NCBI GenBank assembly: GCA_025449635.1
Contig: JANWIZ010000036.1
Coordinates: forward strand, 1 to 45,862
Source: Patescibacteria group bacterium
GTDB lineage: Bacteria; Patescibacteriota; Microgenomatia; Woykebacterales; RBG-16-39-9b
Direction: 5' to 3'
DNA: 45,862 nt
Shown piece after piece: positions 1,256-30,415 of the stretch. A program made the translations under genes and the position numbers. The notes under the pieces were generated by a model. It did no database searches. It had not been told where the DNA came from and worked only from the letters and a program-made list of their open reading frames with translations. How positions within the stretch are numbered: the first letter of the stretch is position 1; each line of letters begins with the position of its first letter.

Positions 1256-1402
1256 CCGTTCTCACCCCCTCTCAAGTTGGATTTAGTTTCTAAACTAACT
1301 TTAAGAAATTGACTCTCTGAAAATGAAAAAAACACCAAATCTGAATTAACTGACGTTTGATGTTTAAAATTTATTTTTACTCGGGCAGAGTAGTTCATTA
1401 TA

Positions 1403-2251
1403 TTACAAACCTAGAGTTTTAAGATACAGCCCCAAGATCTTGTCTCCGCAAACTGCAGAGATAAAGGATCCGAAGGCTAGAGCGGGTCCGAACGGAATAG
1501 TCTGTCCGAAGCCTTTCTTACCTAGTAATATAAGCATAACAGCACTGATAGCGCCTGTCAAGAAACCTAGAACAACCGCAACAAGAGCTAGTGGCCAACC
1601 TAAAGAAAGTCCTATAAAAATGCTGAGTTTGAAGTCCCCACCGCCCATACCTCGACCTTTAGTGACAATAATTAAAACCAAGAAAAAAGCGGCAATACAA
1701 AAAGTAGCGAAAAGGTCAATAGTAAGAATGCGCATGACAGTAAACGCATTGTTGCTAGCAAAAATCGATACTAATACAAGATACAGAGAGGCGATTAAAA
1801 TTGACGGAAAAAGAATTTTGTCCGGAATTATACCTTTTTTGAAATCAAAAACAGTCAGAACTATCAGAACTGAAAAAAAGAAAAGCATATAAACAAAACG
1901 GAACCAAAACGCCAAACTACTTCCCACAAATGTCTGATAAAAATCACAAGAAAAAGAGATGAATGCTAAGGTAAAGGCGAGAGCTGTGATCAACTCAACA
2001 GTTGGGTATTGAAGAGAGATCTTGGAATGGCAATAGCGGCATTTTCCAGATAAAAAGAGATAACTGGCGATTGGGATCAGATCTAAAACACCAAGTTGAT
2101 GCTTACAATGAGGACAAAAAGATCGTCCCGACAAATTTTTACCAGATTCGAAACGATAAATAACTACATTAAGAAAAGAACCGACTGCAGCGCCAAAGGC
2201 GAAAAAAATTATTATTCCAAAAACCAAATAAACAACTGTTTCTGCAATCAT
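1403..2251 (-). CDS. pilD: Prepilin peptidase
   Basis: GSFLNVVIYR, two CxxC pairs (CPHC, CRYC), GMGGGDFKL, IPFGPAL. Confidence 0.95.
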   Translation of the reverse strand: MIAETVVYLVFGIIIFFAFGAAVGSFLNVVIYRFESGKNLSGRSFCPHCKHQLGVLDLIPIASYLFLSGKCRYCHSKISLQYPTVELITALAFTLAFISFSCDFYQTFVGSSLAFWFRFVYMLFFFSVLIVLTVFDFKKGIIPDKILFPSILIASLYLVLVSIFASNNAFTVMRILTIDLFATFCIAAFFLVLIIVTKGRGMGGGDFKLSIFIGLSLGWPLALVAVVLGFLTGAISAVMLILLGKKGFGQTIPFGPALAFGSFISAVCGDKILGLYLKTLGL

Positions 2252-2257
2252 AGTTTT

Positions 2258-2848
2258 TTAGGGAACCAAACTTAGTTCTCCGATCTCATATCGATCAGCT
2301 AAACTACCCCCGTCACTTTTTGCTTCTTCAAGTCCAGTTTCACTTTCCATTTTGGCAGTTAGTTTGTACTTGCCATTTTCTCCTGGAGTGAATGTATAGA
2401 CAAAATCCTCTTTTTCGCTAGGAAAAAATCCATTAATTATTGGCAGTTTTTGCCTTATAGGAAAGGTTTCCTCGAGCGGATCTATCGGTAAAAGGTTTAG
2501 TGGAGTCCCAAAAAGCTTGGCGTTGATTGAGAGGTCAAGCGGCACCCAACCATGAGAATTGACAAAGCGCTTGTTTATCACCTTTACAGTTGCGTTTGTT
2601 AGTTTAATTTCGCGAAATGCAAAAACATCACTACCGATAGCACAATTTTGGCAAAGAGGGGGGAGTGCTTTGGCATTTTTGGTAATGTAAAAATCAATGG
2701 CCTTCTTTAATTGTCGAAGGTCTGCTACCCTTCGCTGATCCCGATGTTGTCGGTTTTTTTCAAGTGGATTATAGAGAAAAATGAAAGTAAGAATTACAAC
2801 TATAACTACTGCAATACCTGCTAAAACTTTAATTACCATTTTAGTCAC
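2258..2848 (-). CDS. Pilin-like protein (minor pilin, GspG-like)
   Basis: N-terminal TM helix, RDQRRVADL helix, LPIDP and YKLTAKMES motifs; no canonical G|F cleavage site; lies within the pil operon. Confidence 0.7.
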   Translation of the reverse strand: MTKMVIKVLAGIAVVIVVILTFIFLYNPLEKNRQHRDQRRVADLRQLKKAIDFYITKNAKALPPLCQNCAIGSDVFAFREIKLTNATVKVINKRFVNSHGWVPLDLSINAKLFGTPLNLLPIDPLEETFPIRQKLPIINGFFPSEKEDFVYTFTPGENGKYKLTAKMESETGLEEAKSDGGSLADRYEIGELSLVP

Positions 2849-5285: not shown

Positions 5286-7052
5286 TTATGCATCCTGAGC
5301 AACCCGAATCACCTCTTCAATCGTAGTTAAACCCTCAAGAGCCTTTAAATATCCGTCTTGCTTCATCGAAATCATGCCATCGGAAATCGCTGTTTTTTCA
5401 ATTTCACTGCTCGGTGCTCTCTCAAGAATAGATTTTCCAACTTTTTCAGTAATATTTAGAACTTCAAAAACTCCAATTCTGCCCTTATAACCACTGTCGT
5501 TGCACTTATCACACCCCTTACCTTTGTAAAGCTTGAATTTCTTTGTTCCAGTAACTTCTTCCATATCTTTAGCTTCTTCGGCTGAAAGCCGCTTTTGAGT
5601 CGCCTCATTGGCCAAACTTCCAAGTACAGCTTTGATATTCTGGACAATCAAATCTGTCGGTTCAACCGCTTCTTTACAGTCAGAACAGATCTTTCTCACA
5701 ACTCTCTGGGCTACAATTGCGTTCATTGACGAGGCAAGTAAAAAGGTTTCTGCTCCCATATCCATCAGACGAGGCAGAGCCCCAGCAGAAGAGTTTGTAT
5801 GCAAAGTAGAAAAAACCAAATGTCCGGTCAAAGCTGCCTGAATCGCCAAACCAGCAGTTTCAGAGTCTCGAATTTCACCAACCATGATGATGTTTGGATC
5901 TTGTCGCAAAAAACTACGAAGTCCAGAGGCAAAAGTAAGCCCGGCAACTGGATTGATTTGAACCTGATTGACACCGGGAATTTGATATTCAACTGGATCC
6001 TCAAGGGTAACAATATTAACCTTGGATGAATTTATTTTCGAAAGTGCTCCAAAAAGCGTGGTTGTCTTACCAGAACCTGTTGGACCGGTAATCAAAACAA
6101 TTCCATTAGGGCGGGTAATATTTTCTTCAAAAATCTTTAACCCCATACCTCTCAATCCTAAGTCACCTAAAGTGGGGGCACTACCGGCTTTGGGAAGAAG
6201 ACGCATTACCACCTTTTCACCGTGTACTGTCGGTAGAGTCGAAATACGCAAATCAACTGCCTGATCACCAACTTTAAAACTAAAACGCCCGTCTTGAGGA
6301 ATTCGTTTTTCGTCAATTTTTAGATTTGAAAGAATTTTTATTCTGGAAATCAAGGCTTCATGAACTTTGGTTGGCAAAACCACGCGCTCTTGCAAGATAC
6401 CGTCAATTCGATAACGAACTCTAGTTTTTTCCTCTAATGGTTCGATGTGTATATCAGAGGCACGACCTTTAATCGCGTATTCGACTAGGGTTGCAACTAT
6501 CTTGGCGACCGGTGCTTCCTTGATAACTTCTTCGACTTTATCCAGATCTTTGAGTACTTCTTTAGCCTCAACTGGTTCAGTTTCCTGGACAGCGGCAGTC
6601 ACTGTTGTTGTCAAACTCTGTGAGTATTGATCGACAATTGCTTGATTGATCAAAGCCGGAGTTGAAATAAAGGTCCGAATTCGCTTTTCACTTTTTCTTT
6701 CAATAAATTCGACGACTTGCAAATCAAGAGGGTCGGACATGGCCACTGAAAGAACATCGTCTTTTCCGAGTTCAAAAGGAATCAGTACATACCGTCTCGC
6801 AACTGGTTCTGGGATCAGCGATAACACATCACTAGGGATTGGCTTTAAGTTGGGGTTATAAAAGTGAACCCCAATCATTTCACCTTTTGCAGCTACCAAG
6901 TCATCATTAGAAACAAAATTGTGTTCACGAATAATATCTTCAGGGGTTTTACCAGTATTTACAGACTCAAGTTTAACCAGGGAACGGTTTTCTGTAGTTA
7001 TTTTTTTCTGTTCGAAGAGAATGTCTTCGATACTTTTGTTGGTTACTTCCAT
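5286..7052 (-). CDS. pilB: Type IV pilus assembly ATPase (PilB/GspE)
   Basis: ASDIHIEP, PQDGR, GPTGSGKTT, LRQDPNIIMVGEIRD, CxxC..CxxC Zn site; ATG at 7052 preferred over TTG at 7058. Confidence 0.95.
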   Translation of the reverse strand: MEVTNKSIEDILFEQKKITTENRSLVKLESVNTGKTPEDIIREHNFVSNDDLVAAKGEMIGVHFYNPNLKPIPSDVLSLIPEPVARRYVLIPFELGKDDVLSVAMSDPLDLQVVEFIERKSEKRIRTFISTPALINQAIVDQYSQSLTTTVTAAVQETEPVEAKEVLKDLDKVEEVIKEAPVAKIVATLVEYAIKGRASDIHIEPLEEKTRVRYRIDGILQERVVLPTKVHEALISRIKILSNLKIDEKRIPQDGRFSFKVGDQAVDLRISTLPTVHGEKVVMRLLPKAGSAPTLGDLGLRGMGLKIFEENITRPNGIVLITGPTGSGKTTTLFGALSKINSSKVNIVTLEDPVEYQIPGVNQVQINPVAGLTFASGLRSFLRQDPNIIMVGEIRDSETAGLAIQAALTGHLVFSTLHTNSSAGALPRLMDMGAETFLLASSMNAIVAQRVVRKICSDCKEAVEPTDLIVQNIKAVLGSLANEATQKRLSAEEAKDMEEVTGTKKFKLYKGKGCDKCNDSGYKGRIGVFEVLNITEKVGKSILERAPSSEIEKTAISDGMISMKQDGYLKALEGLTTIEEVIRVAQDA

Positions 7053-17003: not shown

Positions 17004-17063
17004 AGATAAATCTTAATTGAAACAAAGCTAAAAAGCAAATATTGTACGACGTGACATTATTTA

Positions 17064-17110
17064 CAAAAGGGAAGATCGCGATGGTCACTGTTAGGTGGTC
17101 GCGATCTTTT
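17064..17110 (-). terminator. Intrinsic terminator of the zinc-finger gene
   Basis: AAGATCGCGA...TCGCGATCTT inverted repeat followed by CCCTTTTG on the - strand. Confidence 0.6.
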
Positions 17111-17363
17111 GGGTTTTGCCGCAAACTGGACAAGTGTTGTAACCTTCTCCCTCTGGAAATGGTCCGCCACAGTCTGGGCAACGCTTTTCGGATGGGGGAG
17201 TCCAGGGCAACCGCTGGGTTTTAACCTTTGGTCTTACTGTCGACTCCACCTCACTGCAGTCGTGATCTTCGATGTGTTCCTTACAGAACCGTCGATCACA
17301 CTTGCTACAGTATTGATCAGAGCGGTAAGGAAGATCCTTATCGCACTTAGCACATTCGTACAA
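17091..17363 (-). CDS. Small double zinc-finger protein (AN1-like finger plus C4 zinc ribbon)
   Basis: CAKC-x11-CSKC-x4-CKEH-x3-HDC, then CPDC...CPVC; SD AAGGAG before a TTG start; own terminator. Confidence 0.75.
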   Translation of the reverse strand: MYECAKCDKDLPYRSDQYCSKCDRRFCKEHIEDHDCSEVESTVRPKVKTQRLPWTPPSEKRCPDCGGPFPEGEGYNTCPVCGKTQKIATT

Positions 17364-17506
17364 TGGATAACTCCTTAACTACGCTCTATTTTTTATAGTA
17401 TAGCATATTTTAGCTTCAATTGCAACCCTATAGTCAATTAATTACTAATTTACTTGTACCTTACCTATATAATTAATCAGTACTTTAAAAAGGAGGCTAA
17501 TAGTCA

Positions 17507-18658: not shown

Positions 18659-19228
18659 ATGTCAATTTTTAATTATTTGCTCAACCGCAACCTTGCTCAT
18701 GTTCGCCGCTTTAACAATCGCCCGATGACATTCGGTGAGTCAGTTGCCGAACACTCCTACTACGTAGCTCACTTTGTCCAATTGATCTGCTTCCTTCTGG
18801 AAAAAAAGAAAATAAAAATAGATTCAAAAAAAACGATTGCTATGGCTTTGATTCACGACAGCGAGGAAGGTTTTTCTGGTGATATCCTCAACCCTTTTAA
18901 ACATTTTAATAAAAAAATCGCCGACGCTATTCACGAGGTTAACAAAGAAACAATTCATTTGATGTTTGAGGATTTACCAAAAGACATTTCCGGTAACTTT
19001 ATTGGCTTGTGGCAGGAAGAGCAAAAACGAGAATCGATTGAAAGCCAAGTAGTCAAAGTGGCTGATAGTTTGTCTTTGATTTCAAAATGTTATGAAGAAA
19101 TTGAAGTGGGCAACCATTTTTTTCATGAAATTTACAAAAGAGAGCTTAAAAATCTCAAGAATCTCGATTATTCGTGGTGGAAAAAAATAAAATCCCAAAT
19201 CCTTAACAAAGCAGAGACCGTAATTTAA
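18659..19228 (+). CDS. HD-domain 5'-deoxynucleotidase (YfbR-like)
   Basis: LAHVRRF, ESVAEHSY, ALIHDSEE..GDI, VKVAD; promoter TTGCAA-17-TATAAT (18620-18648) places the start at ATG 18659. Confidence 0.88.
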   Translation: MSIFNYLLNRNLAHVRRFNNRPMTFGESVAEHSYYVAHFVQLICFLLEKKKIKIDSKKTIAMALIHDSEEGFSGDILNPFKHFNKKIADAIHEVNKETIHLMFEDLPKDISGNFIGLWQEEQKRESIESQVVKVADSLSLISKCYEEIEVGNHFFHEIYKRELKNLKNLDYSWWKKIKSQILNKAETVI

Positions 19229-19284
19229 CCGAATAATTATTCACTATAACTAGATAATTTTTCTTTTTTTGAACCGCTTATAGG

Positions 19285-19313
19285 TTGACAAAATCCTCTT
19301 CTCGGAGTAATAT
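19285..19313 (+). promoter_or_regulatory. Sigma70 promoter for candidate ncRNA-1
   Basis: TTGACA (19285-90), 17 bp, TAATAT (19308-13); predicted TSS ~19320 coincides with the first base of the first helix. Confidence 0.8.
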
Positions 19314-19319
19314 GCTCGA

Positions 19320-19653
19320 GCACGTTTGATCTCGCAGGCAAATGATCAACACTAACAACTGGACGGGGAAGTCCTGCACAGGGAGAGATCGACATGACGT
19401 GTGACGCTGGCGGTGGAAGTGGCTGACCAACGCGGGTGAAGGGAAGTGAAAGCTTTCACCGCCAGCACCTTATGCCGGACTGCGAGGAAGCGCGCGAAGA
19501 GCGACTGAGACATTATCCCCCTCATGTTCTCGCAGCCCGGCACCAACTTGATAATTTCAATTGGGGAGGGGTGTTAGCGGTAGAAGACCAAAGTCATGGA
19601 AAACTGGGAAAGCTCATGACGATGGAGTACTCTTCTACCGCTTTATTTTTTTT
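19320..19653 (+). ncRNA. Candidate large structured ncRNA-1 (~330 nt, family unknown)
   Basis: Helices 19320-33/19385-402, 19406-20/19452-66 (15 bp), 19473-88/19527-42, 19576-87/19631-42 (12 bp), then a U-tract; G-U pairs on + only; no credible long ORF. Confidence 0.75.
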
Positions 19654-20821
19654 CAAGCAGCATAAGAGACGCTGGAATTACAGCGCTTTTGCCAAAACGT
19701 GCTTTCAGTTGATCGATTCGTTTTTCCAAACCCAATCTTTTTTCCCGAACTTCGTCAAATAGTGACGGTTGCACTGTTTCTCCAAACTGAGTCAGGCCGA
19801 TGCCTACCAAACGCAGTGGGGTAGAGCTATCCCACAACTCTTTTAACAAGATTTCCCCAAGATCATAAATTTCCTTAGTGATGTTTGTCGGTGTTTCCAA
19901 AACCCGCTGTCGACTGACAAACCGAAAATCTTTATACCGAATTGTCACATGAACTGTCCGACCAAAATACCCATGTTCTCGAGCTTCTTGCCCAACACTT
20001 TCGGTAAGTTTTCGTAGCATCGCTAGGATGAAAGCCTCGTCCGGATTGTCTTTATAAAAAGTTTCACTACGAGAAATAGATTTCACCTCAACTCGAGGAC
20101 TAAACCAAACATTGTCCACACCATTGGCAGCTTCCCAAAGATTGATGGCAAACTTGCCCCAAGCTTTGATTTTTTCATAATCAACTCTTGCCAACTCTCC
20201 CAATGTTCTGACTCCAAGACGCTGAAAATACTCTTCCATCTTCCGTCCAATACCAGGTAAATCACGCAGCGGTAGGGGAGCGAGAAAAGCTTTTTCTGTT
20301 CCCACAGGCACGTAAGTAAAACCATCCGGCTTGCGGAAGTCACTAGCAACTTTGGCAGCCACTTTGGTCGCAGCCAAACCGATCGAAGCGGTAATACCAA
20401 TTTCATTTTTAATGTCAGAGCGAATTTTCTCAGCTACGATTTTTAAGTCTGGGTAAAGAATTTCAGTGTTAGAAAAATCCAAGAAGGCTTCGTCAATGCC
20501 AACTTGCTCAACTCTAGGTGCGTAACGAGCAGCAATCTCCATCACTGCCTCTGAAGCTTCGATATACTCCGCAAAGTGCCCTCCAACAACGACTGCAGAG
20601 GGACAAAGTCTCAAGGCTTGATAAACTGGCATTCCGCTTTTACAACCAAAAGCTCTGGCTTCATAAGAAGCAGTTGCGATCACACCTCGGGGAACATTTT
20701 TCCCTTGAGGATTGACTCCACCAACCAAAACTGGTTTACCTTTCAACGTTGGGTCAAGCTTGATTTCAACAGCTGCAAAAAAACAGTCCATATCCAAATG
20801 CATCCAAGAAGAACGTAACAT
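19643..20821 (-). CDS. dinB: DNA polymerase IV (Y family)
   Basis: HLDMDCFFAAVE, ASYEARAFG, GIDEAFLD, AKVASDFRKPDG, LRLVGIG; ATG at 20821 follows a TTGACA/TATTAT promoter. Confidence 0.95.
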   Translation of the reverse strand: MLRSSWMHLDMDCFFAAVEIKLDPTLKGKPVLVGGVNPQGKNVPRGVIATASYEARAFGCKSGMPVYQALRLCPSAVVVGGHFAEYIEASEAVMEIAARYAPRVEQVGIDEAFLDFSNTEILYPDLKIVAEKIRSDIKNEIGITASIGLAATKVAAKVASDFRKPDGFTYVPVGTEKAFLAPLPLRDLPGIGRKMEEYFQRLGVRTLGELARVDYEKIKAWGKFAINLWEAANGVDNVWFSPRVEVKSISRSETFYKDNPDEAFILAMLRKLTESVGQEAREHGYFGRTVHVTIRYKDFRFVSRQRVLETPTNITKEIYDLGEILLKELWDSSTPLRLVGIGLTQFGETVQPSLFDEVREKRLGLEKRIDQLKARFGKSAVIPASLMLLEKK

Positions 20822-20833
20822 ACTATATAATAG

Positions 20834-20849
20834 CCGAAAGTTAACCGAA
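20834..20849 (-). promoter_or_regulatory. Direct-repeat operator TTCGG-N6-TTCGG in the dinB promoter (putative LexA/SOS box)
   Basis: - strand TTCGG TTAACT TTCGG between -35 TTGACA (20857-52) and -10 TATTAT (20832-27). Confidence 0.65.
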
Positions 20850-20876
20850 GATGTCAATTGGGACAAACTGTATCAG

Positions 20877-20922
20877 AAAAGAAAAAACCCGAGGAACTTA
20901 CTAAGTCCATAACGGGTCTTTT
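20877..20922 (-). terminator. Intrinsic terminator of desaturase 1
   Basis: - strand GACCCG..GGAC TTAGTAAG TTCCTCGGGT followed by TTTTTCTTTT. Confidence 0.7.
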
Positions 20923-20935
20923 GACAATCTCTCAA

Positions 20936-21985
20936 CTAACTATAAACTCCAGCGACATTCACATGCCTGACGATCTGGTGTCGAAGCAAAGACTTGATCC
21001 GATTAACCAATCCATTGCTTTGTGGAATTCGCTGATCAAAACCAAAACTCTCCAGTACTATTTCACCGACAAATCCGTTCTGACGCAAGAAGGTCAGTAC
21101 TGACCGCAGAATCTTTGGATTCATACCAGCCAAAGAATCACCACGAGCAGCAGCAAGATCAAGCATCAACCGACCGGTTTTGTTGACATCATTGGTCAGT
21201 TCATGCATGTAGCGCACTAGATCCCGAACCCAAGCTCGGTAATCAGCTCCCATCATCTGCCCAAGTTCACCACCGCGATGAGCCAAATCCGGAGCGACTT
21301 GGTGCTCAGGCATCTCAAACTTTGCAGTTGCGATCGCTACCTGCTCCAAAAGTTCAGGATTGTACTGGACCTGAATGGCTGTAAAACGGTTATACCAAAC
21401 GGTGTGTAAAGTTTCTCGCTTTCTGACTCGTACGATTCGATCAGCTGCCACTGGCGAGCTCGCTCGTACAGTCTTTGCAACCACTCCATGATAACCGTCA
21501 GTGACTCGTTCTTGAATCGTACCAAACCAAGTAACCCCAATCGGCGTCAAAACTCCACGATGTTCAAACTCTCTAGCCAGATCTTCGCGGGCAATTCTGA
21601 TCAAATCAGAAGGGTAGTAACCTAGATCCACCAAACTATCGAAATAGGGAAGGTTGTGGGTTTTTTCGTCCGGACTCCACACCTCAGCATTAAATCGTCC
21701 AAGCCAACCAACCCCAAATAGATCCGCGACCATCTGAAACTGATGATCGTAAGTTTCAGTTGCTGCTTCGGTACGGTAACCTAGCATGAGAGCATCGCGA
21801 AAGTCCTCGATACCCATCCCTTCAGGGAGACTACGACCTACTGCCGAAACATCCAAACCTTCACCAATCTCTCTGGTCAAATCAGGATGAACAAATTCCC
21901 CAGGATCCTTCAGAATCGACAAACTGTAGTCCTCAAGAGCCTTAATACCAGCTTCAGGAACAAAATAGTCCATTTTGAGAACCAA
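20936..21985 (-). CDS. Soluble acyl-ACP desaturase (ferritin-like di-iron, DesA-like), copy 1
   Basis: Di-iron ligand pattern TEAAT...WSPDEKTH...QERVT...RETLH, and FEMP; SD AAGGAGGTGA before a TTG start. Confidence 0.82.
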   Translation of the reverse strand: MVLKMDYFVPEAGIKALEDYSLSILKDPGEFVHPDLTREIGEGLDVSAVGRSLPEGMGIEDFRDALMLGYRTEAATETYDHQFQMVADLFGVGWLGRFNAEVWSPDEKTHNLPYFDSLVDLGYYPSDLIRIAREDLAREFEHRGVLTPIGVTWFGTIQERVTDGYHGVVAKTVRASSPVAADRIVRVRKRETLHTVWYNRFTAIQVQYNPELLEQVAIATAKFEMPEHQVAPDLAHRGGELGQMMGADYRAWVRDLVRYMHELTNDVNKTGRLMLDLAAARGDSLAGMNPKILRSVLTFLRQNGFVGEIVLESFGFDQRIPQSNGLVNRIKSLLRHQIVRHVNVAGVYS

Positions 21986-22070
21986 TTCTCACCTCCTTTT
22001 TTGATCTCTACAGTAATTTTAGTATAACATCTGAGAAGTAACCGCACCTTAAAATCCAAATGGAGGAAAA

Positions 22071-23327
22071 ATGAGAGTCGTCATCACTGGAATGGGAGCG
22101 ATCACTCCTGTCGGCAAAACGCCAAAAGAGATCTTTTCCGCAGTTGTGAACAAAAAATCTGGGATTCGTGAGGTAAAATCGTTTCCGCTTGATGAAAATC
22201 ACCTTTGCCGTGTTGCTGGTGAGGTAGATTTTAATCCAAGCTGGTTGGATCGCTTGATTCATCGAAAGGATCAGCGAAAAATCGCTCGAGCCTCGCAATT
22301 TCAAATGTATGCGATCGATCAAGCACTTATTGACGCCAAACTTCTTTACAAACATTTGACTCCAAAGCTGGCTCAGCGTATTGGCATTTGCGTTGGTGCC
22401 AGTATGATCGGGATGTCAGATGTTATTTATGAGGTTGGTCGTTACCGAGATTCTGGTGCAAGATTTATTTCTGCGGCTTTGATCCAAAAAATCATGCCGA
22501 ATGCCGCTGCTGCTCGACCTTCACTACACAGTCAGATTCATGGTCCGGTCTATACGACATCAGCTGCTTGTGCAACAAGTGCAATGAGTATGATCGATGC
22601 TTATAAAATGATTACAGATTTGGAATGTGACGTTGTAGTAACTGGTGGTTGTGAAGATGCGCTTGATCCAATTTCTTTGGCTTCTTTTGGCAATTTGACA
22701 GCGCTTTCAACCAGCTGGAACGATCAACCGCATAAAGCACTTCGTCCGTTTGACTCAAAACGAAATGGTTTTGTACCAGGCGAGGGGGGAGTTGCTTTTG
22801 TTTTTGAAGGTTTGGATCACGCTCTAGCCAGAAAGGCAAATATTTACGCAGAAGTCGTTGGCTACTGTCGCAATTCCGATGCTCACAACATCGTTCACCC
22901 GCACCCTGAAGGGACTTGGCAAGCACTATGCATGTCAACCGCTCTGGAAAGGGCAGGGGTAACACCGTCAAATCTGAGCTATATCAATGCTCACGGAACA
23001 GGTACTCCGGAAGGAGACCCGTCTGAGTGCCGGGCAATCGCTACTTGTCTTGGTAAAGATGTGAAAAAAGTTCCAGTTTCTTCCAGCAAAGGTGTTCTCA
23101 GCCATTTGATGAGTGCCTCAGCTGCAGCTGAACTGTTAATTTGTGTCGAAGCGATAATGCAAAATATTATCCCTCCAACTACCAATCTAGAAGTTATTGA
23201 CGCTGAATGCACTGATCTTCACCATGTCACCAAAGCTTTCAGATCTGAAGTGACTGCAGTGATGAATAATTCGTTTGGATTTGGTGGGGAAAATACTGCC
23301 ATGGTTGTGAAAAAATTTACAGAATAA
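22071..23327 (+). CDS. fabF: Beta-ketoacyl-ACP synthase II
   Basis: RVVITGMG, SAACATS catalytic Cys, YINAHGTGT, SHL, NSFGFGG (Cys-His-His triad). Confidence 0.93.
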   Translation: MRVVITGMGAITPVGKTPKEIFSAVVNKKSGIREVKSFPLDENHLCRVAGEVDFNPSWLDRLIHRKDQRKIARASQFQMYAIDQALIDAKLLYKHLTPKLAQRIGICVGASMIGMSDVIYEVGRYRDSGARFISAALIQKIMPNAAAARPSLHSQIHGPVYTTSAACATSAMSMIDAYKMITDLECDVVVTGGCEDALDPISLASFGNLTALSTSWNDQPHKALRPFDSKRNGFVPGEGGVAFVFEGLDHALARKANIYAEVVGYCRNSDAHNIVHPHPEGTWQALCMSTALERAGVTPSNLSYINAHGTGTPEGDPSECRAIATCLGKDVKKVPVSSSKGVLSHLMSASAAAELLICVEAIMQNIIPPTTNLEVIDAECTDLHHVTKAFRSEVTAVMNNSFGFGGENTAMVVKKFTE

Positions 23328-23334
23328 ATCTGTT

Positions 23335-23376
23335 AAAAGCCCGTTGGGATATCAATCCAATCAATGGGCTTTTTTT
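23335..23376 (+). terminator. Intrinsic terminator of fabF
   Basis: AAAAGCCCGTTG...CAATGGGCTTTTTTT. Confidence 0.8.
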
Positions 23377-23441
23377 ATTACTTTTATAACTATTATGAGT
23401 CAACCTATTGCTTTTTTAATTCCTTTAGTAAATAATTTTTA

Positions 23442-23746
23442 TGTAATCCTGTGTGAAAGAGCGTGAAGAAAGGAGACCGCGCACTTTTCCGATATATAAA
23501 GGCGGCCAGACTCCATCATGACCCCCTCTAGTATCGTGATTCGCACAAAACAGAGCAGAGCTGGACAACACGGGCGCACATTCCCAACCGGATTTTGCCG
23601 CCCACACAGGATTGCACGACAACCAGAGCCCGGAGATAGACTGTCGATCCGCCGACAGGTGAAAACGCCGCACCCCCCGCAGATTTTTCACGAGAGTAAC
23701 GAGAGGAGCACTCTTTACTCTTTTTCTATTTTCGGGCAACTTTTTT
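23442..23746 (+). ncRNA. Candidate large structured ncRNA-2 (~305 nt, two multibranch domains, family unknown)
   Basis: 14-bp closing helix 23442-55/23603-16. 13-bp closing helix 23628-40/23725-37 encloses three abutting hairpins. U-tract at 23741-46. Promoter TTGCTT-17-AATAAT at 23408-36. Confidence 0.75.
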
Positions 23747-23750
23747 GAAT

Positions 23751-23787
23751 AAAAAAACCGCCCTAGTAGAGAAAACTAACGCGGTTA
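23751..23787 (-). terminator. Intrinsic terminator of desaturase 2
   Basis: - strand AACCGCGTTAG...CTAGGGCGGTTTTTTT. Confidence 0.75.
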
Positions 23788-23812
23788 AAACTTACCTCTC
23801 TAAAAACTTCAA

Positions 23813-24805
23813 TTAAGCAGCAACCAACTGGAAACTACCATCCGAAACCAACTGATAAACCTCAGCTCCTTCAGGTATTCCCTCCAAAGGCTTATTGGGT
23901 AGAACAACAACGGCATTCTCGGGAAGCTCTTGAACTGCAACTTCAGCTGCTCTGACCGCATTGCGATCTTTCAAACCCATACTCTGGATTGCTGGGCTAA
24001 GAACACTTCTACCCCAATCCATCAACGAGAAAACACCCGCCGAATAAACCGTTGCCTCGAATTGCTCCTTGTTGGGAAACCTAACTTCTGGCATACGATA
24101 CGTGGCGAAAGCCTGATTCATCGCTTCAATTGCAAGATCAGGTCGGTATCGTAGGTAAATGCGAAGAATTTCTCGAAAATTACTTTCGTGAGCACCTTCG
24201 TCACGTTCCACATACCAAACCATCATACTCAACACCAAAAGCAGAGGGTTTTTGGTTCTTTCATACTCTGCTTTGAGGAATTGGCGAAAGCGGTGATAGT
24301 TATGCTTGGTCTGACGCTCTTGGACAATACCATAAGCCGAAGCGTTATAAGGTGTCGCTGCGTGTCCGGTTTGGCGCTCAAACACCCACGTATCCTCAGA
24401 AGCCTCTTCCAAGAATTTGTCTACCTCTGCCTGTGTTGCCAATCCAGAGTCAACCAAACTATAACGAAAGGTCTGACCGTGCTTACGCTCTTCGACACCC
24501 CAACCAATTGTCGCTTCACGAATCGTAATACTGTCACCAGCACCTTGAATACCAGCGAAAACATAATCGTCAACAAACGACTCAACCCCAAGAAACCCAA
24601 AAAGCATTTCCCGAATTTCTGAAATAAGCTGAGCCGCTACTTCACGATACCGACGAAGTTCATCTCGCTCTTTAAGACGCTTCGGAAACCATGCACGAGC
24701 CACTACCGCTTTAGCAAAATAGGTATCGTATTGAGTACGAATAGCCTTCTGAATCGCGGTCTCTTTACCAACCAAAGTAATCGGATCGGTATTGAGATAA
24801 ACCAA
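23813..24805 (-). CDS. Soluble acyl-ACP desaturase (ferritin-like di-iron, DesA-like), copy 2
   Basis: GVESFVDDY...WGVEERKH...QERQT...RDEGAH...YRMP; SD AAGGAGGG before a TTG start. Confidence 0.87.
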   Translation of the reverse strand: MVYLNTDPITLVGKETAIQKAIRTQYDTYFAKAVVARAWFPKRLKERDELRRYREVAAQLISEIREMLFGFLGVESFVDDYVFAGIQGAGDSITIREATIGWGVEERKHGQTFRYSLVDSGLATQAEVDKFLEEASEDTWVFERQTGHAATPYNASAYGIVQERQTKHNYHRFRQFLKAEYERTKNPLLLVLSMMVWYVERDEGAHESNFREILRIYLRYRPDLAIEAMNQAFATYRMPEVRFPNKEQFEATVYSAGVFSLMDWGRSVLSPAIQSMGLKDRNAVRAAEVAVQELPENAVVVLPNKPLEGIPEGAEVYQLVSDGSFQLVAA

Positions 24806-24886
24806 TAATCTTCCCTCCTTTTCTGTGATCTCAACTCTTGAGGGGAGTATAACATTTTTTGCTTCAGTTTTTTTGTTTTTCGGATA

Positions 24887-25672
24887 TTAAAGTTTCGAGG
24901 CACGCCAACCAGCAGTTTGGGCTTCTTGCTCAGTACAAAACCAACGTTCACCTTTACTTTCATCAATACTAGTTTTGTCGTAATAACTACCATTAGGAAT
25001 ATGGTAGATCTTTTCACCAGAACTGGAGATGTTTCCTTTGATTTTACAATCAGAATTTGAGTTTAGGGTGGTTAGAGAATAATTTGTACTTGACTGCACC
25101 TGACCAGAACCAAGACTACAACTGCCCCAAAGCCCTTTTTTACTGTTTCGGGCAGAGGTTTCAGCTGCTTTAAATTTGTCTTGATACTTTACATCTGGAG
25201 GGTAAGAAGCTGCTTTGCCAAAGCCCTCACTAACCAAGTATTCATTTACAAAAGTTTCGTCAACATAGACGTACCGAAGCAATCGTCCATATCGGTCAGT
25301 CTCAGAAACATCCTTCTCCAAACGGACTTTTTTACCTTCGACCAAGTCCTTGTTTTTATTTGAAGCTTCTTTTCCGTAACAGCCGACTGTCTGTCTGGGA
25401 TCTACAGTCTCTGGGGTATCAATACCGATATAGCGAACTTTTTGTCCACCCTCGATCTCGATGGTGTCGCCGTCAACAATTTTTGTAACTAAGATACCTT
25501 CTTGGGAATTACTTCCTGAATTAGAGGTGGTATTTTCTGATTGTTCTGTTTCTGTAGAATTATTGCCAGATTTATTAACAGTAATATTTTGAGAGGATAA
25601 CCCTTGTGAAAAAAGTACCAAAACAAGAAATACGGCAAACCCAAGTAGAGGATAGAAAAGTTTTTCTTTCAT
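24887..25672 (-). CDS. Membrane-anchored thermonuclease (SNase) with a C-terminal Ada-like/CxIKGNI domain
   Basis: IVDGDTI, VRYIGIDTPE, DRYGRLLRY, ARNSKKGLW; CKIKGNIS..KIYH..WFCTEQEA. Confidence 0.92.
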   Translation of the reverse strand: MKEKLFYPLLGFAVFLVLVLFSQGLSSQNITVNKSGNNSTETEQSENTTSNSGSNSQEGILVTKIVDGDTIEIEGGQKVRYIGIDTPETVDPRQTVGCYGKEASNKNKDLVEGKKVRLEKDVSETDRYGRLLRYVYVDETFVNEYLVSEGFGKAASYPPDVKYQDKFKAAETSARNSKKGLWGSCSLGSGQVQSSTNYSLTTLNSNSDCKIKGNISSSGEKIYHIPNGSYYDKTSIDESKGERWFCTEQEAQTAGWRASKL

Positions 25673-25706
25673 CTCTTCTAGATTAACTTAAATAAAAACT
25701 GAATAC

Positions 25707-25748
25707 AAAAAAGAAAAGGGAAGCTGTCAAAAAGTGACAAATTCCCTT
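25707..25748 (-). terminator. Intrinsic terminator of the DegV gene
   Basis: - strand AAGGGAATTTGTCA..TGACAGCTTCCCTTTTCTTTTTT. Confidence 0.7.
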
Positions 25749-25749
25749 A

Positions 25750-26673
25750 TTAGTCATAAACGATAATCATCGCAACATACTTGGGACCAGTAATCGAAAG
25801 AAGAGCAATCGGCAGTACTTCTCTTTCAATTATCTCAGCCTGTGTGTGACCAAGCAACGATCCCACAATTGTACCGGTTTCAAACGAAGATTCTCGCTGA
25901 TATAGGTAAATCTTTTTAATACCTTTACCCATTTCGACCCTTTTCTCAACTTCCTTGCAAATCGCAGCTACCATTGGTTGAAAGGTACGAGAAATACCGA
26001 CAATTTTCTCTTTCCCCTCCATGAGCGTCAAAGCCAATTTGGGAGAGTGGTGCGTCCGACGAGCAAACCAGGCAGCCAAATTTCGAGCGTAGTGCTTCAG
26101 TGTTTCTCTCAGTTTGTGGGAGGCCAACTCTTCGATCCGACCGCTAGCTGTGATGTAGTCGATCTTATCAAGCGCCAGGAACAGTTCAACTTTACCTGCC
26201 AATCTCTCCATTCGATGAACGATGTGGTCAAAGATCTCACCTTGTTCAGCAAGTGCTGTTGCTTCCTGCGCCAAGTACTCGACACCAGCAGCGGTTGTAC
26301 CTGTATCGATTACTTCAACAACCACATCCGATTTTTCTTCTCTAAAAAGATTGACTGCTAGCATAGCAGAATTGTAAGTACCGCTTTTACTAGCTGGAAC
26401 AGTCAAAACCAAGAAACGATTGTAACCCTCATCTGTCATTTCCTGATAAACAGTCAAAAAATCAATCGGGGACGGTTGAGCAGTTCCCGGTGGCTTCTTG
26501 CAAGCACGTTGAATTTCGAGAAAATCTTCCGTTGAAATCTCATCCTGCTTAATCGAGATTGGATCAGGTTGATCAGTCTGATAAGTTACATAAAAAGGAA
26601 TGACTCGGTGGGCAAAAGGTGAATCCCGCAACAAACTGCCATCAGTGATTACGGCAATCCTTTCTTCGGTCAC
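25750..26673 (-). CDS. DegV/FakB-family fatty-acid-binding protein
   Basis: IAVITDGS, TAQPSP, SKSGTYNSA, VIDTGT, SGRI; SD GAGGAG before a GTG start. Confidence 0.88.
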   Translation of the reverse strand: MTEERIAVITDGSLLRDSPFAHRVIPFYVTYQTDQPDPISIKQDEISTEDFLEIQRACKKPPGTAQPSPIDFLTVYQEMTDEGYNRFLVLTVPASKSGTYNSAMLAVNLFREEKSDVVVEVIDTGTTAAGVEYLAQEATALAEQGEIFDHIVHRMERLAGKVELFLALDKIDYITASGRIEELASHKLRETLKHYARNLAAWFARRTHHSPKLALTLMEGKEKIVGISRTFQPMVAAICKEVEKRVEMGKGIKKIYLYQRESSFETGTIVGSLLGHTQAEIIEREVLPIALLSITGPKYVAMIIVYD

Positions 26674-26718
26674 TTCTTTCTCCTCTCTAAGTTTGAAACC
26701 TGGCTATAATAGCAAACT

Positions 26719-27240
26719 TTGCAACAGAAAGGCAAATTGTGGTTTAGTAAAAGAGTGAACAATGATTATTTAAAAGGTAGCTTTCTAGCATTTCTGGTTT
26801 TAAGCGCGACAGTTGGATTAGTCTATTTGTCTCAAAACTTTTCTGAAACGAAATCATTTTCAAAAGTAAATACAAACTCAGAAAGGAAACTTCAGATCGG
26901 GTATACGACTATAACTGTGGAGACAGCCGATTCGCCAGTCGAGCAAGCTAAGGGTTTGTCTGGTCGAGAAAGTTTAGGAGAAAACCGTGGAATGTACTTC
27001 GTTCTAGAAAAAAGAGGGTTAATCAGTTTTTGGATGAAAGAGATGAAATTTTCGATTGACATCATTTGGGTCGACAGAGATACGATAATCGGTTTTGTCG
27101 AAAACGCCCCGCTACCATCAGAAGAGGGTATCCCAACTTTCAAATCTCCTTCTCCAGTAACCCACGTACTTGAAGTCAACGCTGGTTTTGTACAACAACA
27201 CGATTTGGAAGTTGGTCAGGAAATTGTTGAGCTAAAATAA
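26719..27240 (+). CDS. DUF192-family protein
   Basis: VETADS...AKGLSGR...GMYF...FWMKEMKFSIDIIW...VLEVNAG; N-terminal TM helix; start uncertain. Confidence 0.85.
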   Translation: MQQKGKLWFSKRVNNDYLKGSFLAFLVLSATVGLVYLSQNFSETKSFSKVNTNSERKLQIGYTTITVETADSPVEQAKGLSGRESLGENRGMYFVLEKRGLISFWMKEMKFSIDIIWVDRDTIIGFVENAPLPSEEGIPTFKSPSPVTHVLEVNAGFVQQHDLEVGQEIVELK

Positions 27241-27246
27241 TTAAGT

Positions 27247-28221
27247 ATGAAAATTTTTGATAGTGTTTACGGTGAATTTGAAGTTAAGGAACCAGTTCTT
27301 GTTGAACTAATAAATTCTAAACCACTCCAGCGAATCAAGGGCGTTAACCAAGCTGGTACCCAACTAGTTCAAATTGAAAAAACTACAACCCGATACGATC
27401 ACTGTACTGGAGTAATGATCTTACTTGCCAAATTTGGGGCAAGTTTGGAAGAACAAATTGCAGGATTGTTACACGACGTACCACACACTGCCTTTTCCCA
27501 CGCAGCAGATTTTGTTTTTAAAGAAAATGAAAGTCAAACCTATCACGAAAGGTTTTTAAAGCAAATTGTTTTTGATTCAGAGATTCCAGCAATTCTAGAA
27601 AAATACGGTTTTGACCCTGAAAGAGTAACTGATGAACACAATTTTACCCTTCTAGAACAAGATATTCCCCAGCTGTGTGCTGATCGTATTGATTACTCAC
27701 TCCGGGATATAGCTACGGATAAGATTTTTTCCGAAAATGATATTAAACATATTCTTGATTCAATTACTGTCTTCGAAGGTAAATTTGCGATGAACGATAA
27801 AAAAATAGGCTATTTTTATGCCAAAGCTTTTATGAATCAGTGTCTTAACTCCTGGAACGCGCCAGTCACTCTGACAGCCTTTGAGCTTTTCGGACAACTT
27901 GTCCGTCAAGCAATAAAAATTAAAGTTTTGACTGAGCAAGACTTGTTCCAGACTGATGATGAGGTTCTGGAAAAATTGAAAACTTCAGAAAATAAAGAGG
28001 TTAAGAATTTACTCTCTAAACTGAATCCAAATCTTTCTGTGGTTCACGATGAAATAAATTTTGACTTTGACACTAGAGGGAAGGTGCGCTACATCGATCC
28101 CCCAATACTAAAAAACAAAATTGTCACACCTCTTTCCAAACTAAATCCCGCCTTTGAGCGGGATATAGTTACCTTTATTCAGTTAGCCAAGGCTGGCCAT
28201 AAAATTCGAGTTATTTCCTAG
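27247..28221 (+). CDS. HD-domain phosphohydrolase (dNTPase-like)
   Basis: D.VYG, LQRIKG..QAG, RYDHC, LLHDVPH..FSH, CADRIDY. Confidence 0.88.
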   Translation: MKIFDSVYGEFEVKEPVLVELINSKPLQRIKGVNQAGTQLVQIEKTTTRYDHCTGVMILLAKFGASLEEQIAGLLHDVPHTAFSHAADFVFKENESQTYHERFLKQIVFDSEIPAILEKYGFDPERVTDEHNFTLLEQDIPQLCADRIDYSLRDIATDKIFSENDIKHILDSITVFEGKFAMNDKKIGYFYAKAFMNQCLNSWNAPVTLTAFELFGQLVRQAIKIKVLTEQDLFQTDDEVLEKLKTSENKEVKNLLSKLNPNLSVVHDEINFDFDTRGKVRYIDPPILKNKIVTPLSKLNPAFERDIVTFIQLAKAGHKIRVIS

Positions 28222-28879
28222 ATACTGCTTGAAAGGCATATTTATTAACTGTATTCACTACTATCCCAATCAAAACCAACGCCAAAGCTAGAGCTAGATT
28301 CCCGATCAAACCAAGATAAGAATCGTTCCCGGTTTGTGGAAGCTTAGTTACCGAAGATAACACAGTTGGAGTTACTACAGTTGTAGTAGCTGCAACAACA
28401 GTGGGGGTACCACTTGGTTGATTTCTGGTAGGCTCGACTATTGGCTTATTTACATTTGGTTTACAATCGTTTTCCACTGGTTTATTTACAACTTTCTTTG
28501 GTTTGTGACCGCACCAACCTTCGTTGTCATCTTCAAAGTCATCGTCATTGCCACAACCATTGTTACCATCTTGATCGGCTTTATCGACACCACCAGTACT
28601 TCCCGGTTTGTCAGATTTACCGTAGTTTCGCTCTGGTCCTTTAGAGTTGTTATCTGGATCAGATTTAGATTTACCTTGAGTGAAAGAGAGTCCTTTTTCA
28701 ATACTGCGATCTTTTCCAGATGGGTGAGAGTTGTCACCTTCATCAGGCTTGTCGTAAACTATTGAGGACTTTATTGGTTTGGAATGCGAATAGTTACCGT
28801 AAGAGGCAAAAGCCACCTTTGGCAATAAAGCTAAATTAAAAAGAAGTATTAACCCTATAATAACAGTTTTCTTAATCAT
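28211..28879 (-). CDS. Secreted LPXTG-type surface protein
   Basis: Signal peptide ending AFA, Asp/Gly/Asn-rich core, Pro/Thr linker, LPQTG plus TM helix and basic tail; promoter TTGACA-17-TAGAAT ends 7 nt before ATG 28879. Confidence 0.82.
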   Translation of the reverse strand: MIKKTVIIGLILLFNLALLPKVAFASYGNYSHSKPIKSSIVYDKPDEGDNSHPSGKDRSIEKGLSFTQGKSKSDPDNNSKGPERNYGKSDKPGSTGGVDKADQDGNNGCGNDDDFEDDNEGWCGHKPKKVVNKPVENDCKPNVNKPIVEPTRNQPSGTPTVVAATTTVVTPTVLSSVTKLPQTGNDSYLGLIGNLALALALVLIGIVVNTVNKYAFQAVSRK

Positions 28880-28886
28880 GGTAGTT

Positions 28887-28950
28887 ATTCTATCATATCT
28901 TATAGTATATGTCAATGTGACTTGACTCTTGCATAATCTTAGGGTAAAAT
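28887..28950. promoter_or_regulatory. Back-to-back divergent sigma70 promoters
   Basis: - strand TTGACA (28915-10)-17-TAGAAT (28892-87); + strand TTGACT (28922-27)-17-TAAAAT (28945-50). Confidence 0.78.
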
Positions 28951-28957
28951 GCTTTTC

Positions 28958-29265
28958 AGCTCAATTACCTTCGGGAGATTTTGAGATAGGCTCTTGGGCC
29001 TGCGAGAAAGGAAGATAATTGAGTTAGGGAAGACTCTGGTGTGGATGCCACAGAGAATAAAACTAGGAGTGAGACCTAGTCGGGGTTTGCCTTGATCCCC
29101 GTTAGAGCTTTCGTTCTCCAAGGACAGTGACTCATCTTTTGTGAAATAATGAGGAGATGAGTGGAGTATGTAAATCACACATACTTTGAGTCTGTTCTGC
29201 CAAAAACTTGCACGAAAAAGGGCTATCCCAACTCTGCAAGTCGTGTGTCTTCCCGAATTTTTTTT
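28958..29265 (+). ncRNA. Candidate large structured ncRNA-3 (~308 nt, family unknown)
   Basis: Helix 28958-67/29016-25. Long-range GGGAAGAC/GTCTTCCC (29027-34/29247-54) encloses at least 7 helices. U8 tract at 29258-65. Starts 7 nt after the -10 box. Confidence 0.75.
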
Positions 29266-29360
29266 AAATCGTAGCAACCTCAAATTTTCGTATTTAAATA
29301 TAAGCTCCCTAGGTATATACTCAAACTACTATATAGAGAGATCAGGAAAGGAGGTTTTCC

Positions 29361-29954
29361 GTGTTCCCAGAAAGCGGGCTGGGTTTTGACTTTCTGGTAA
29401 ATCAACCGATTTACTTGCGGGGTAGAAGAATTGTTGGTCCTTTAGTCAACAGTTACTGGCCCGCAACTTTCGTGCACATGGAGTCAAGATTTTCGAAGTA
29501 TTTTCTTTTGCTTCCTTTGGCAGCTTTTTTGGGAATCGAATGGGCGATTGGGATCATGCTTGTTTATGGTATGGGCTACACTTTGTTTTATGAGTGGCTT
29601 AGCTCTCGTGGCAGAATCCCAGAACCAATGGAGACAAACAATCCCGCCAAAGGGTTTATGGTTGGTCTCCAGCAGTGGGGTTACTCAAAAGTAGTGAAGC
29701 GGTTGGGTCCAGGAAGTTCGAACCTCGTCAAAATACCGACAATTGCTTTTGGAGCCTTAACTTGTGGTGGTGTGGTCGCTGTGCACTACTATATAAAAGC
29801 TGCGGGTTATTCAGGAATTGGGGCGGTAGTTGGTAATATGGCTTGCAGACTTGCTGCCATTCCGGAAAAGTTTCTGTATCTTAGTGGTCTGTCAATTGCA
29901 ATCGGTCTGGTCAAACCACAAGCTTTGCAAATACTGAGCGAGATCTTCAGATGA
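29361..29954 (+). CDS. Hypothetical membrane protein
   Basis: Several hydrophobic segments; SD AAAGGAGG before a GTG start; own terminator. Confidence 0.7.
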   Translation: MFPESGLGFDFLVNQPIYLRGRRIVGPLVNSYWPATFVHMESRFSKYFLLLPLAAFLGIEWAIGIMLVYGMGYTLFYEWLSSRGRIPEPMETNNPAKGFMVGLQQWGYSKVVKRLGPGSSNLVKIPTIAFGALTCGGVVAVHYYIKAAGYSGIGAVVGNMACRLAAIPEKFLYLSGLSIAIGLVKPQALQILSEIFR

Positions 29955-30007
29955 CAAGGTGTCTTTTTGCTGCAAAGGCAACGAAGACCCCTTGTCTTAT
30001 TTTTTTT
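29953..30007 (+). terminator. Intrinsic terminator
   Basis: GACAAGG.GTCTT..TTGC...GCAA..AAGAC.CCTTGTC followed by TTATTTTTTTT. Confidence 0.75.
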
Positions 30008-30023
30008 CAATAACTCCAAACTA

Positions 30024-30052
30024 TTTACCCTATAGAAATTATTTGTTATAAT
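30024..30052 (+). promoter_or_regulatory. Promoter of the two-gene operon
   Basis: TTTACC-17-TATAAT with extended -10 TG. Confidence 0.65.
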
Positions 30053-30125
30053 CTCACCCTAAAAGTAGCAAAGGAGGATTTTACAACTTAATAAAAACGG
30101 ACTAGTTCAAACAAGGAGAAGATCA

Positions 30126-30413
30126 GTGGAAATTTCAACTCTAAACACCCAAGAGGGAGACCGAAAGGTCACTCTCGACACCCGGAGCGTGAACGGTCGC
30201 AACACCGCCAAAGAAATGATCGAGAGTAAGCTCAAAGAGGGTGCAGCGCTCTTCATCAAGATCAACGGCGATGACTTTCGAGTCAAAGGCTACGACCCGA
30301 AGAAAGACGAGCTGATTGTGCGTCGCAACACAATAGTTGCTCGACAGCAAACGTTCCGTTACCCGGGTCACGAAGCGAAACTCACGATCGTTCCTCCCCG
30401 CGCCGGCGGCTAG
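30126..30413 (+). CDS. Small hypothetical protein with a ubiquitin-like C-terminal Gly-Gly
   Basis: 95 aa ending LTIVPPRAGG-stop; SD AAGGAG before a GTG start; 2 bp from the next ATG. Confidence 0.75.
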   Translation: MEISTLNTQEGDRKVTLDTRSVNGRNTAKEMIESKLKEGAALFIKINGDDFRVKGYDPKKDELIVRRNTIVARQQTFRYPGHEAKLTIVPPRAGG

Positions 30414-30415
30414 CA

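Follow-up and report, generated by a model that had tools for sequence, protein, structure and literature searches.

We analysed a 45,862-nt stretch of DNA (the window), which is the entire contig JANWIZ010000036.1 (contig C36) of a Patescibacteria group bacterium of the lineage Woykebacterales (assembly GCA_025449635.1, here G000), and identified in it three intergenic units, RNA A (19320–19655), RNA B (23442–23747) and RNA C (28958–29267), given in window coordinates on the + strand. On balance we lean towards the interpretation that each of the three units is an independent gene for a structured RNA that acts in trans, and that each represents a family outside Rfam. The assembly of G000 comprises 760,548 bp in 46 contigs, with a GC content of 38.3% and an estimated completeness of 83%. 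As they stand, RNAs A–C are a set of good candidates and not a demonstrated new mechanism.

Each of the three units is flanked by long open reading frames (ORFs) and is non-coding. The GC content was 52.5% for RNA A, 51.1% for RNA B and 43.8% for RNA C, compared with 38.3% for G000. The folding z-scores of the + strand were −3.72, −5.78 and −3.47 for RNAs A, B and C, respectively, and none of 100 shuffles equalled the native sequence in any of the three cases. The RNase P RNA of G000, used as a positive control, gave a z-score of −5.58, whereas 26 coding windows of 320 nt, used as a negative control, gave a mean of −0.29 (standard deviation 0.94; minimum −1.96). Compared with these coding windows, the folding signal of RNAs A–C lies well past chance, in agreement with the first-pass annotation of this DNA, which had described the units as highly structured. 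In the predicted folds, 62–65% of the bases of RNAs A–C were paired.

Stop-free frames of 76–114 aa raise the alternative that RNAs A–C encode small proteins, which we consider the least probable of all the readings weighed here. The ORFs inside the three units measure 64–114 aa, and none of the six reached the Pfam cut-off, the best sub-threshold match being DUF4131 (19.6 versus the 31.6 bits required). The 104-aa minus-strand frame of RNA B had no relative among 5.8 billion proteins, of which only those of 57–182 aa were searched. The 114-aa minus-strand frame of RNA C is lost in its homologue on the metagenome contig L011 described below, where the longest stop-free stretch is 59 aa. No convincing ribosome-binding site could be read from the sequences of RNAs A–C. 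The earlier statement that the units hold no credible long ORF was thus borne out by both the Pfam result and the loss of the RNA C frame.

Comparison of two sequences indicates that RNA C is a real conserved family with two known members. The second member lies on L011, a related contig that was retrieved when metagenomes were scanned with the FabF-like protein encoded in the window. L011 shares synteny with the window over SHMT, yfbR, dinB, fabF, degV and DUF192, and its FabF and DinB proteins are 63% and 68% identical to those of G000. After DUF192, L011 carries a 240-nt homologue of RNA C (L011:8164–8403) with a promoter (TTGACT-17-TATAAT, 11/12) and a hairpin terminator of its own. A single-sequence model of RNA C matched this segment over its full length (61.5 bits, E 4.1e-19). 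An architecture common to both copies was derived by hand, and it cost 0.1 kcal/mol relative to the minimum free energy (MFE) fold for RNA C and 8.1 kcal/mol for the L011 homologue. In the RNA C/L011 alignment 94.5% of the cells were paired, and 21 of the 98 pairs were changed on both sides, a count that comes from no more than two sequences, the alignment of which was fitted to the structure of the model. In controls, slid alignments gave 1–5 such pairs and none of 500 shuffles was as high. The compensatory changes were located in helix 1 (five pairs) and in P2, P3, P4, P5, P6 and P7. Both copies retain a G-U pair at position 2 of P1, which fits the + strand. The search for homologues and covariation, as proposed for all three units, succeeded for RNA C and yielded no homologue for RNAs A and B.

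Beyond L011, the RNA C model found no match in 40 relatives or in 150 genomes of the class, and a pattern made from its conserved core found none in 400 genomes of the class. The single match of this pattern in all species-representative genomes lies inside a protein-coding gene, in a bacterium that is not related, and fails the RNA C model. Likewise, none of 27 loose pattern matches in viral contigs passed the model. Weak nhmmer matches of RNA C in four further loci (L017, L019, L020 and L024) were treated as chance; the L019 sequence reads, by eye, as protein-coding-like.

We then compared RNAs A–C with the known RNA families. None of the 4227 Rfam families matched the 45.9-kb window at gathering thresholds, and the six matches at E ≤ 10 in the region 19000–29600 all fell outside the three units, so that the Rfam check left the candidates without a known family. 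The RNase P RNA of G000 (RF00010) is located at C39:9266–9642 and is the sole match in the genome, scoring 84.7 bits against a gathering score of 100 bits; no RF00010 match at E ≤ 10 was detected over RNAs A, B and C. ARAGORN detected no genes in the window and no transfer-messenger RNA (tmRNA) in the 46 contigs. The tmRNA model RF00023 had no match in the window and low-scoring matches only in G000 (best tRNA-sized, ≤26.4 bits), and neither a tRNA-like end nor a tag frame is present in RNAs A–C. 6S RNA (RF00013) was detected neither in the window at E ≤ 10 nor in G000 at E ≤ 1. The signal recognition particle (SRP) RNA models (RF00169 and the other Rfam SRP models) gave no match over RNAs A–C at E ≤ 10, and the Rfam models of riboswitches, T-boxes and other cis-regulators gave no match over them. 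Large ornate non-coding RNAs (ncRNAs) curated in Rfam include OLE, ROOL, GOLLD, HEARO and raiA, and their models likewise had no match over RNAs A–C at E ≤ 10. Group I and II introns gave no Rfam match, and the units are intergenic, RNAs A and C with promoters of their own. Finally, RNAs A–C are single copy in 760 kb and lack flanking direct or inverted repeats, unlike mobile elements of the miniature inverted-repeat transposable element (MITE) or repetitive extragenic palindromic (REP) type. These results uphold the earlier view that the units are not tmRNA, RNase P, 6S, SRP, T-box or intron RNAs, and also the view that they are stand-alone structured RNAs without a known family, given their own signals, the convergent genes that follow RNAs A and B, and the homologue of RNA C.

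One unit might still be a known essential RNA (tmRNA, SRP, 6S or a second RNase P) too diverged for Rfam, given that the assembly holds no convincing tmRNA (≤26.4 bits), SRP (15.5 bits) or 6S RNA. This is very improbable: no such family was detected at E ≤ 10 over RNAs A–C, the hallmarks of tmRNA are lacking, RNase P is already accounted for on C39, and an essential RNA would be expected in the 16 other genomes of the bacterial family, in which RNAs A–C were not found. Moreover, 17% of G000 is missing, so that failure to detect tmRNA, 6S or SRP RNA is not equal to their absence, and these RNAs are perhaps unassembled. RNA A contains purine-rich strings that resemble RNase P segments; RNA A as an RNase P paralogue was dropped in view of the RF00010 results.

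In G000, the sole small-SRP match scored 15.5 bits at C16:51672–51765. No rRNA was found in the window or in 20 other G000 loci scanned with Rfam (~113 kb), the remaining assembly lying outside the scan. These 20 loci gave nine tRNAs and one DUF805b RNA motif only; the latter, on contig C11 (L036:2669–2701), scored 36.3 bits against an Rfam cut-off of 35.6 bits.

The first-pass annotation had noted no primary-sequence homology among the three units, and we confirmed this with sensitive blastn and nhmmer searches, which detected no similarity among RNAs A, B and C or elsewhere in G000, and with the covariance models, each of which matched only its own unit within the window. No gene neighbour is common to the three. 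The proposal that they form one class or one system of a single design was not supported, because the traits in common (promoter, fold and terminator) are generic to any bacterial ncRNA gene. As judged from sequence, RNAs A, B and C appear to be three mutually unrelated RNA genes.

The putative promoters and 3′ ends were then analysed (Table 1). A sigma70 promoter with a 17-bp spacer had been claimed for each unit; the claim held for RNAs A and C, the promoters of which end 6–7 nt ahead of the first helix, and was weaker for RNA B, for which the best candidate is below the threshold of the scan. The promoter scan over 14 kb listed 31 sites, compared with 21.2 ± 5.5 in shuffles, so that a promoter match counts for little by itself. 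As originally described, the first helix begins 5–7 nt past the −10 box in all three units, and the final helix of each is directly followed by a U-tract. A simple terminator scan flagged none of these three 3′ ends; in our reading, the closing helices may be long-range or large-looped and would hence be missed by such a scan. The interval from the fabF terminator to RNA B contains a 25-nt direct repeat (23368–23392 and 23410–23434; 80% identical, 42 nt apart), the second copy of which overlaps the weak RNA B promoter.

With respect to the strand, G-U pairs had been reported for the + strand only. This was not the case, as the predicted folds of both strands contain them (+ versus −: 16 and 13 for RNA A, 8 and 9 for RNA B, 14 and 6 for RNA C). 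The minus-strand z-scores of RNA A (−3.91) and RNA C (−4.80) were as good as or better than those of the + strand. The fold energies were −126.7 on the + strand versus −114.0 on the − strand for RNA A, and −100.3 versus −92.4 for RNA C. The + strand is therefore the probable one on the basis of the promoters, the U-tracts and the lower + strand energies of RNAs A and C, and for RNA C also on the basis of the conserved G-U pairs and of the homologue's own promoter and terminator.

The location of the units between genes suggests another alternative, namely that RNAs A–C are cis or antisense elements such as long 3′ untranslated regions, bidirectional terminators or insulators, or, in the case of RNA C, the leader of the gene at 29361–29954. 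RNAs A and B lie between convergent genes, the 3′ hairpin of RNA A abuts the stop codon of dinB (19643–20866, minus strand, convergent with RNA A), and the same-strand gene at 29361–29954 begins 94 nt after RNA C. We consider a cis role improbable, since a multi-branch structure of 300 nt is far beyond the need of a terminator and promoters of their own precede RNAs A and C. The genes downstream of RNAs A and B are convergent, so that neither is a leader, and behind the L011 copy of RNA C come a terminator belonging to it and then a convergent gene, which argues that RNA C is no leader either. In addition, the yfbR–dinB gap, which holds RNA A in G000, measures only ~60–120 nt in two other genomes of the bacterial family (G006 and G010), and the genes thus need no such element.

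Several observations weigh against the interpretation of RNAs A–C as three RNA genes. Homologues of RNA A were found neither in 60 relatives by BLAST nor in 39 relatives and 150 genomes of the class with its covariance model (257 nt), and the RNA B model found none in 120 genomes; the genomes of the searched relatives measure 0.6–1.8 Mb. L011, the nearest syntenic contig, lacks RNAs A and B at the matching positions: its yfbR–dinB gap contains a 117-aa minus-strand gene, and downstream of its fabF come a terminator and then a frame that is acyltransferase-like by eye. Genomes of the family with a closer DinB (81% and 79% identity, versus 68% for L011) lack RNA C, so that its distribution is patchy, and its covariation rests, as noted, on two sequences. 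The best promoter of RNA B matches at just 8/12 positions and was not listed by the promoter scan, and thermodynamics gives no strand choice for RNA A or RNA B. Lastly, other GC-rich gaps of G000 (on contigs C32, C8 and C37) are clusters of small-protein genes with ribosome-binding sites, so that GC-richness alone is no evidence for an RNA; RNAs A–C stand out from these gaps by the absence of small protein genes.

Two further GC-rich gaps of the window, 29955–30415 and 17004–17506, were considered as RNAs and rejected, as they hold small protein genes. The former contains a gene with a ribosome-binding site for a 95-aa protein (30126–30413, + strand), and the latter a gene for a 90-aa protein that is rich in cysteine and zinc-ribbon-like (17091–17363, − strand), for which L011 has, by eye only, a cysteine-rich frame (596–1043) in the corresponding gap. 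On contig C32 (14999–16737), a perfect promoter (TTGACA-17-TATAAT) precedes a 1.7-kb stretch of 50–60% GC that contains several small ORFs with GGAGG sites and no RNA, and that may be an acquired small-protein cassette.

The case for RNAs A and B rests on folding, composition and signals, with no evolutionary support among the genomes searched; their models also gave no match in 39 other loci besides the window. Accordingly, RNAs A and B, and less so RNA C, might be non-functional remnants of GC-rich foreign or decayed DNA between convergent genes, the good folding of which would be a leftover of their origin and not a selected function. No homologue of RNA A or B was detected in any genome or collection searched, their GC content is 13–14 points over that of the genome, and other GC-rich islands of G000 look acquired. 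The yfbR–dinB gap is also an apparent insertion hot spot, which elsewhere contains the 117-aa gene, an IS200-like Y1 transposase gene or other units. These points are opposed by z-scores as extreme as that of RNase P, with none of the 26 coding controls under −2, and by the consensus −35 box and 17-bp spacer exactly upstream of RNA A and the U-tract at its end. RNAs A and B are single copy without flanking direct or inverted repeats, they gave no match to phage records by distant BLAST, and none of their exact 20–21-mers occurred in viral contigs. Furthermore, RNA C, which is alike in anatomy, is demonstrably conserved. Taken together, we regard an origin as remnants as unlikely, though far from negligible.

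To place RNA A in its context, we examined the yfbR–dinB gap in other genomes of the same bacterial family. DinB is present in 14 of the 16 other family genomes, and yfbR and dinB both lie within the examined locus in eight. In three of the eight, the gap contains units on the yfbR strand that are led by a promoter, rich in GC and poor in frames, namely G002 (599 nt with flanks, z −3.2), G008 (773 nt, z −7.3) and G011 (391 nt, z −1.8). Two (G012 and G015) have the 117-aa gene, in one (G009) two genes are inserted, one of them for an IS200-like transposase, and the remaining two are G006 and G010 with the short gaps described above. In addition, the gap of G003 contains a ~1.2-kb unit together with the same type of transposase, and G004 has a unit adjoining dinB. 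In all, five related genera (G002, G003, G004, G008 and G011) have promoter-led, GC-rich non-coding units of ~300–1200 nt in or beside the gap. Rfam gave nothing at E ≤ 0.1 on 13 family loci including these slot units. The gap looks like an insertion hot spot. In G009 (L055:2668–3970) and G003 (L102), the IS200-like Y1 transposase gene is flanked by GTGTCAGACAC-type palindromes, and the same gap encodes a product that resembles, by eye, an S-adenosylmethionine decarboxylase proenzyme.

Four of the units in or beside this gap share a 5′ region, which we designate X; they are non-coding and range from ~450 nt (G004) to 1200 nt (G003). The first 100 nt of the G002 and G003 units (102 nt aligned) are 76% identical (E 2e-12), and G008 and G004 also align to the X 5′ domain, although the E-values of their profile matches are weak (0.088 and 0.11). 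An alignment of the four 5′ regions gave a consensus hairpin of 20 pairs, five of which have changes on both sides. RNA A might accordingly be an extremely diverged orthologue of the large ncRNA X, an origin that would be compatible with its being an RNA gene. It occupies the same slot on the same strand relative to yfbR and dinB and is likewise promoter-led, GC-rich and non-coding; G000 has no X copy elsewhere; the length range of X (~450–1200 nt) points to fast divergence; and RNA A and the G004 unit both have AAGUCCUGC near the 5′ end, as seen by eye. Nevertheless, this 9-mer, AAGUCCUGC, is within chance expectation (~0.1), the membership of G008 and G004 in X is itself weak, the X nhmmer profiles gave no match at RNA A (best in G000 E 0.56–1.2, at unrelated places), and the RNA A model gave no match in any X-bearing genome. 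These searches gave no support for RNA A as a member of the slot family X, and we hold its descent from X to be doubtful.

Across the family, the slot of RNA A holds structured RNA-like units, and RNA A may be either a diverged X or a replacement. It is conceivable, although we think it rather improbable, that the family keeps a dedicated yfbR–dinB 'RNA slot', in which a promoter-driven, highly structured RNA of 300–1200 nt is always replaced or diverging past recognition. RNA A would then be the G000 version, and RNAs A–C would be part of a larger fast-evolving repertoire, which we likewise rate as a long shot. Such a slot would imply diversifying selection, for example through interaction with a host cell or phage, and not the slow purifying selection of housekeeping RNAs, a speculation to which we give equally little credence.

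Table 1. Predicted elements of RNAs A–C (window coordinates) and units bearing X in sister-genus loci
Feature	Position	Strand	Description
RNA A promoter	19285..19313	+	TTGACA-17-TAATAT, 10/12
RNA A body	19320..19576	+	5′ long-range domain and two long hairpins (~19406–19466, ~19476–19541), GC ~56%; MFE, centroid
RNA A 3′ extended hairpin	19577..19655	+	GCGGUAGAAGA...UCUUCUACCGC then UUUAUUUUUUUU; abuts dinB stop codon
RNA B weak candidate promoter	23408..23436	+	TTGCTT-17-AATAAT, 8/12, under scan threshold
RNA B 5′ domain	23442..23616	+	14-bp long-range closing stem UGUAAUCCUGUGUG / CACACAGGAUUGCA; MFE, centroid
RNA B 3′ domain	23628..23747	+	Three hairpins closed by GCCCGGAGAUAG / CUAUUUUCGGGC, then AACUUUUUUG
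RNA C promoter	28922..28950	+	TTGACT-17-TAAAAT, 10/12
RNA C P1 domain	28958..29025	+	10-bp P1 (28958–28967 with 29016–29025), extension hairpin; comparative structure
RNA C core	29027..29254	+	P2 (29027–29034 with 29247–29254) encloses P3, P4, P5, variable P6, conserved unpaired UGCCAAAA and P7
RNA C 3′ end	29255..29267	+	GAA and U8 tract directly after P2 3′ strand
X-bearing unit, G002 locus	L060:2677-3275	-	
X-bearing unit, G003:C5:24700-27900	L102 ~1040-2290	-	Position after reversal
X-bearing unit, further sister-genus locus	L061:725-1497		
X-bearing unit, further sister-genus locus	L065:~1000-1490		

Returning to RNAs A–C as independent RNA genes, we infer their transcription, strand, action in trans and protein binding as follows. 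A sigma-70-type promoter belonging to each unit would drive its + strand transcription, the transcript would fold into a multi-helix junction of ~300–340 nt, and it would end with the last helix followed by the U-tract. The products most probably work in trans. By pure inference, the stably folded RNA would bind a protein or some other macromolecule and so serve as scaffold or sponge, in a manner that may be likened to 6S, CsrB or Y RNA. In RNA C, the binding surface could be formed by the conserved unpaired UGCC, which occurs twice, GCCAAAA and a GG bulge. All three RNAs probably belong to a fast-turnover, lineage-restricted repertoire.

The genes around RNAs A–C encode a yfbR-like HD nucleotidase, DinB (a Y-family polymerase), a FabF-like synthase, two desaturase-like proteins, a staphylococcal-type nuclease, DegV, a DUF192 protein and an HD protein; among the other products of the window are parts of type IV pili, gyrase and sensor kinases. 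The region 20936–26673 forms a lipid-related cluster (the FabF-like synthase, two ferritin-like 'desaturase' homologues and DegV) that is unusual in so small a genome. Outside the window, contig C11 has in a 199-nt gap (51.8% GC) a GC-rich long hairpin of ~130–150 nt (~6040–6190), possibly another small RNA, and contig C1 has two strongly folding copies of a ~220-nt repeat (620–835 and 1360–1565) on either side of a lipoprotein-like gene; neither the hairpin nor the repeat matched Rfam at gathering. The signal peptide suggests that contig C1 may derive from another organism.

6S RNA, CsrB-type sponges and Y RNA bind proteins and act in trans, and each has a promoter and a terminator of its own. 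Like them, RNAs A–C are stand-alone units of a few hundred nucleotides with a stable fold and no obligatory neighbour gene. Unlike 6S RNA, they have no RF00013 match and are predicted to form multi-way junctions instead of a rod with a central bubble. Nor do the two RNA C copies have a conserved, repeated loop motif in common. RNAs A–C resemble RNase P RNA in length, GC excess and z-score (−3.5 to −5.8 versus −5.6), whereas the RF00010 model misses all three.

The GC-IGR pipeline yields orphan structured ncRNA candidates from long GC-rich intergenic regions of AT-rich bacteria (PMC11109978; see also PMC8632094, PMC6429828), among them the 'smtA motif', which is grouped with large ncRNAs of unknown function (PMC11109978). 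Similar to these candidates, RNAs A–C are long, GC-rich, intergenic, multi-helix and frameless units in a low-GC genome and are no leaders; unlike them, they are unrelated to any curated family and confined to one genome (RNAs A and B) or two (RNA C). In the main text passages of the 2024 GC-IGR survey of 50 genomes, candidate phyla or Saccharibacteria are not mentioned (PMC11109978). We found no paper on structured RNAs in these lineages, although supplements may list such motifs. RNAs A–C would be new families among the orphan structured ncRNAs that occupy GC-rich gaps in genomes of low GC content.

Structured RNAs have hardly been explored in ultra-small bacteria that depend on a host. If RNAs A–C are expressed, they would add three new structured-RNA families, one of them with covariation support, and, in a genome that spares very little non-coding DNA, they would have to be worth their cost. 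The different structured units in the same gap of sister genera suggest unusually rapid birth, loss or divergence.

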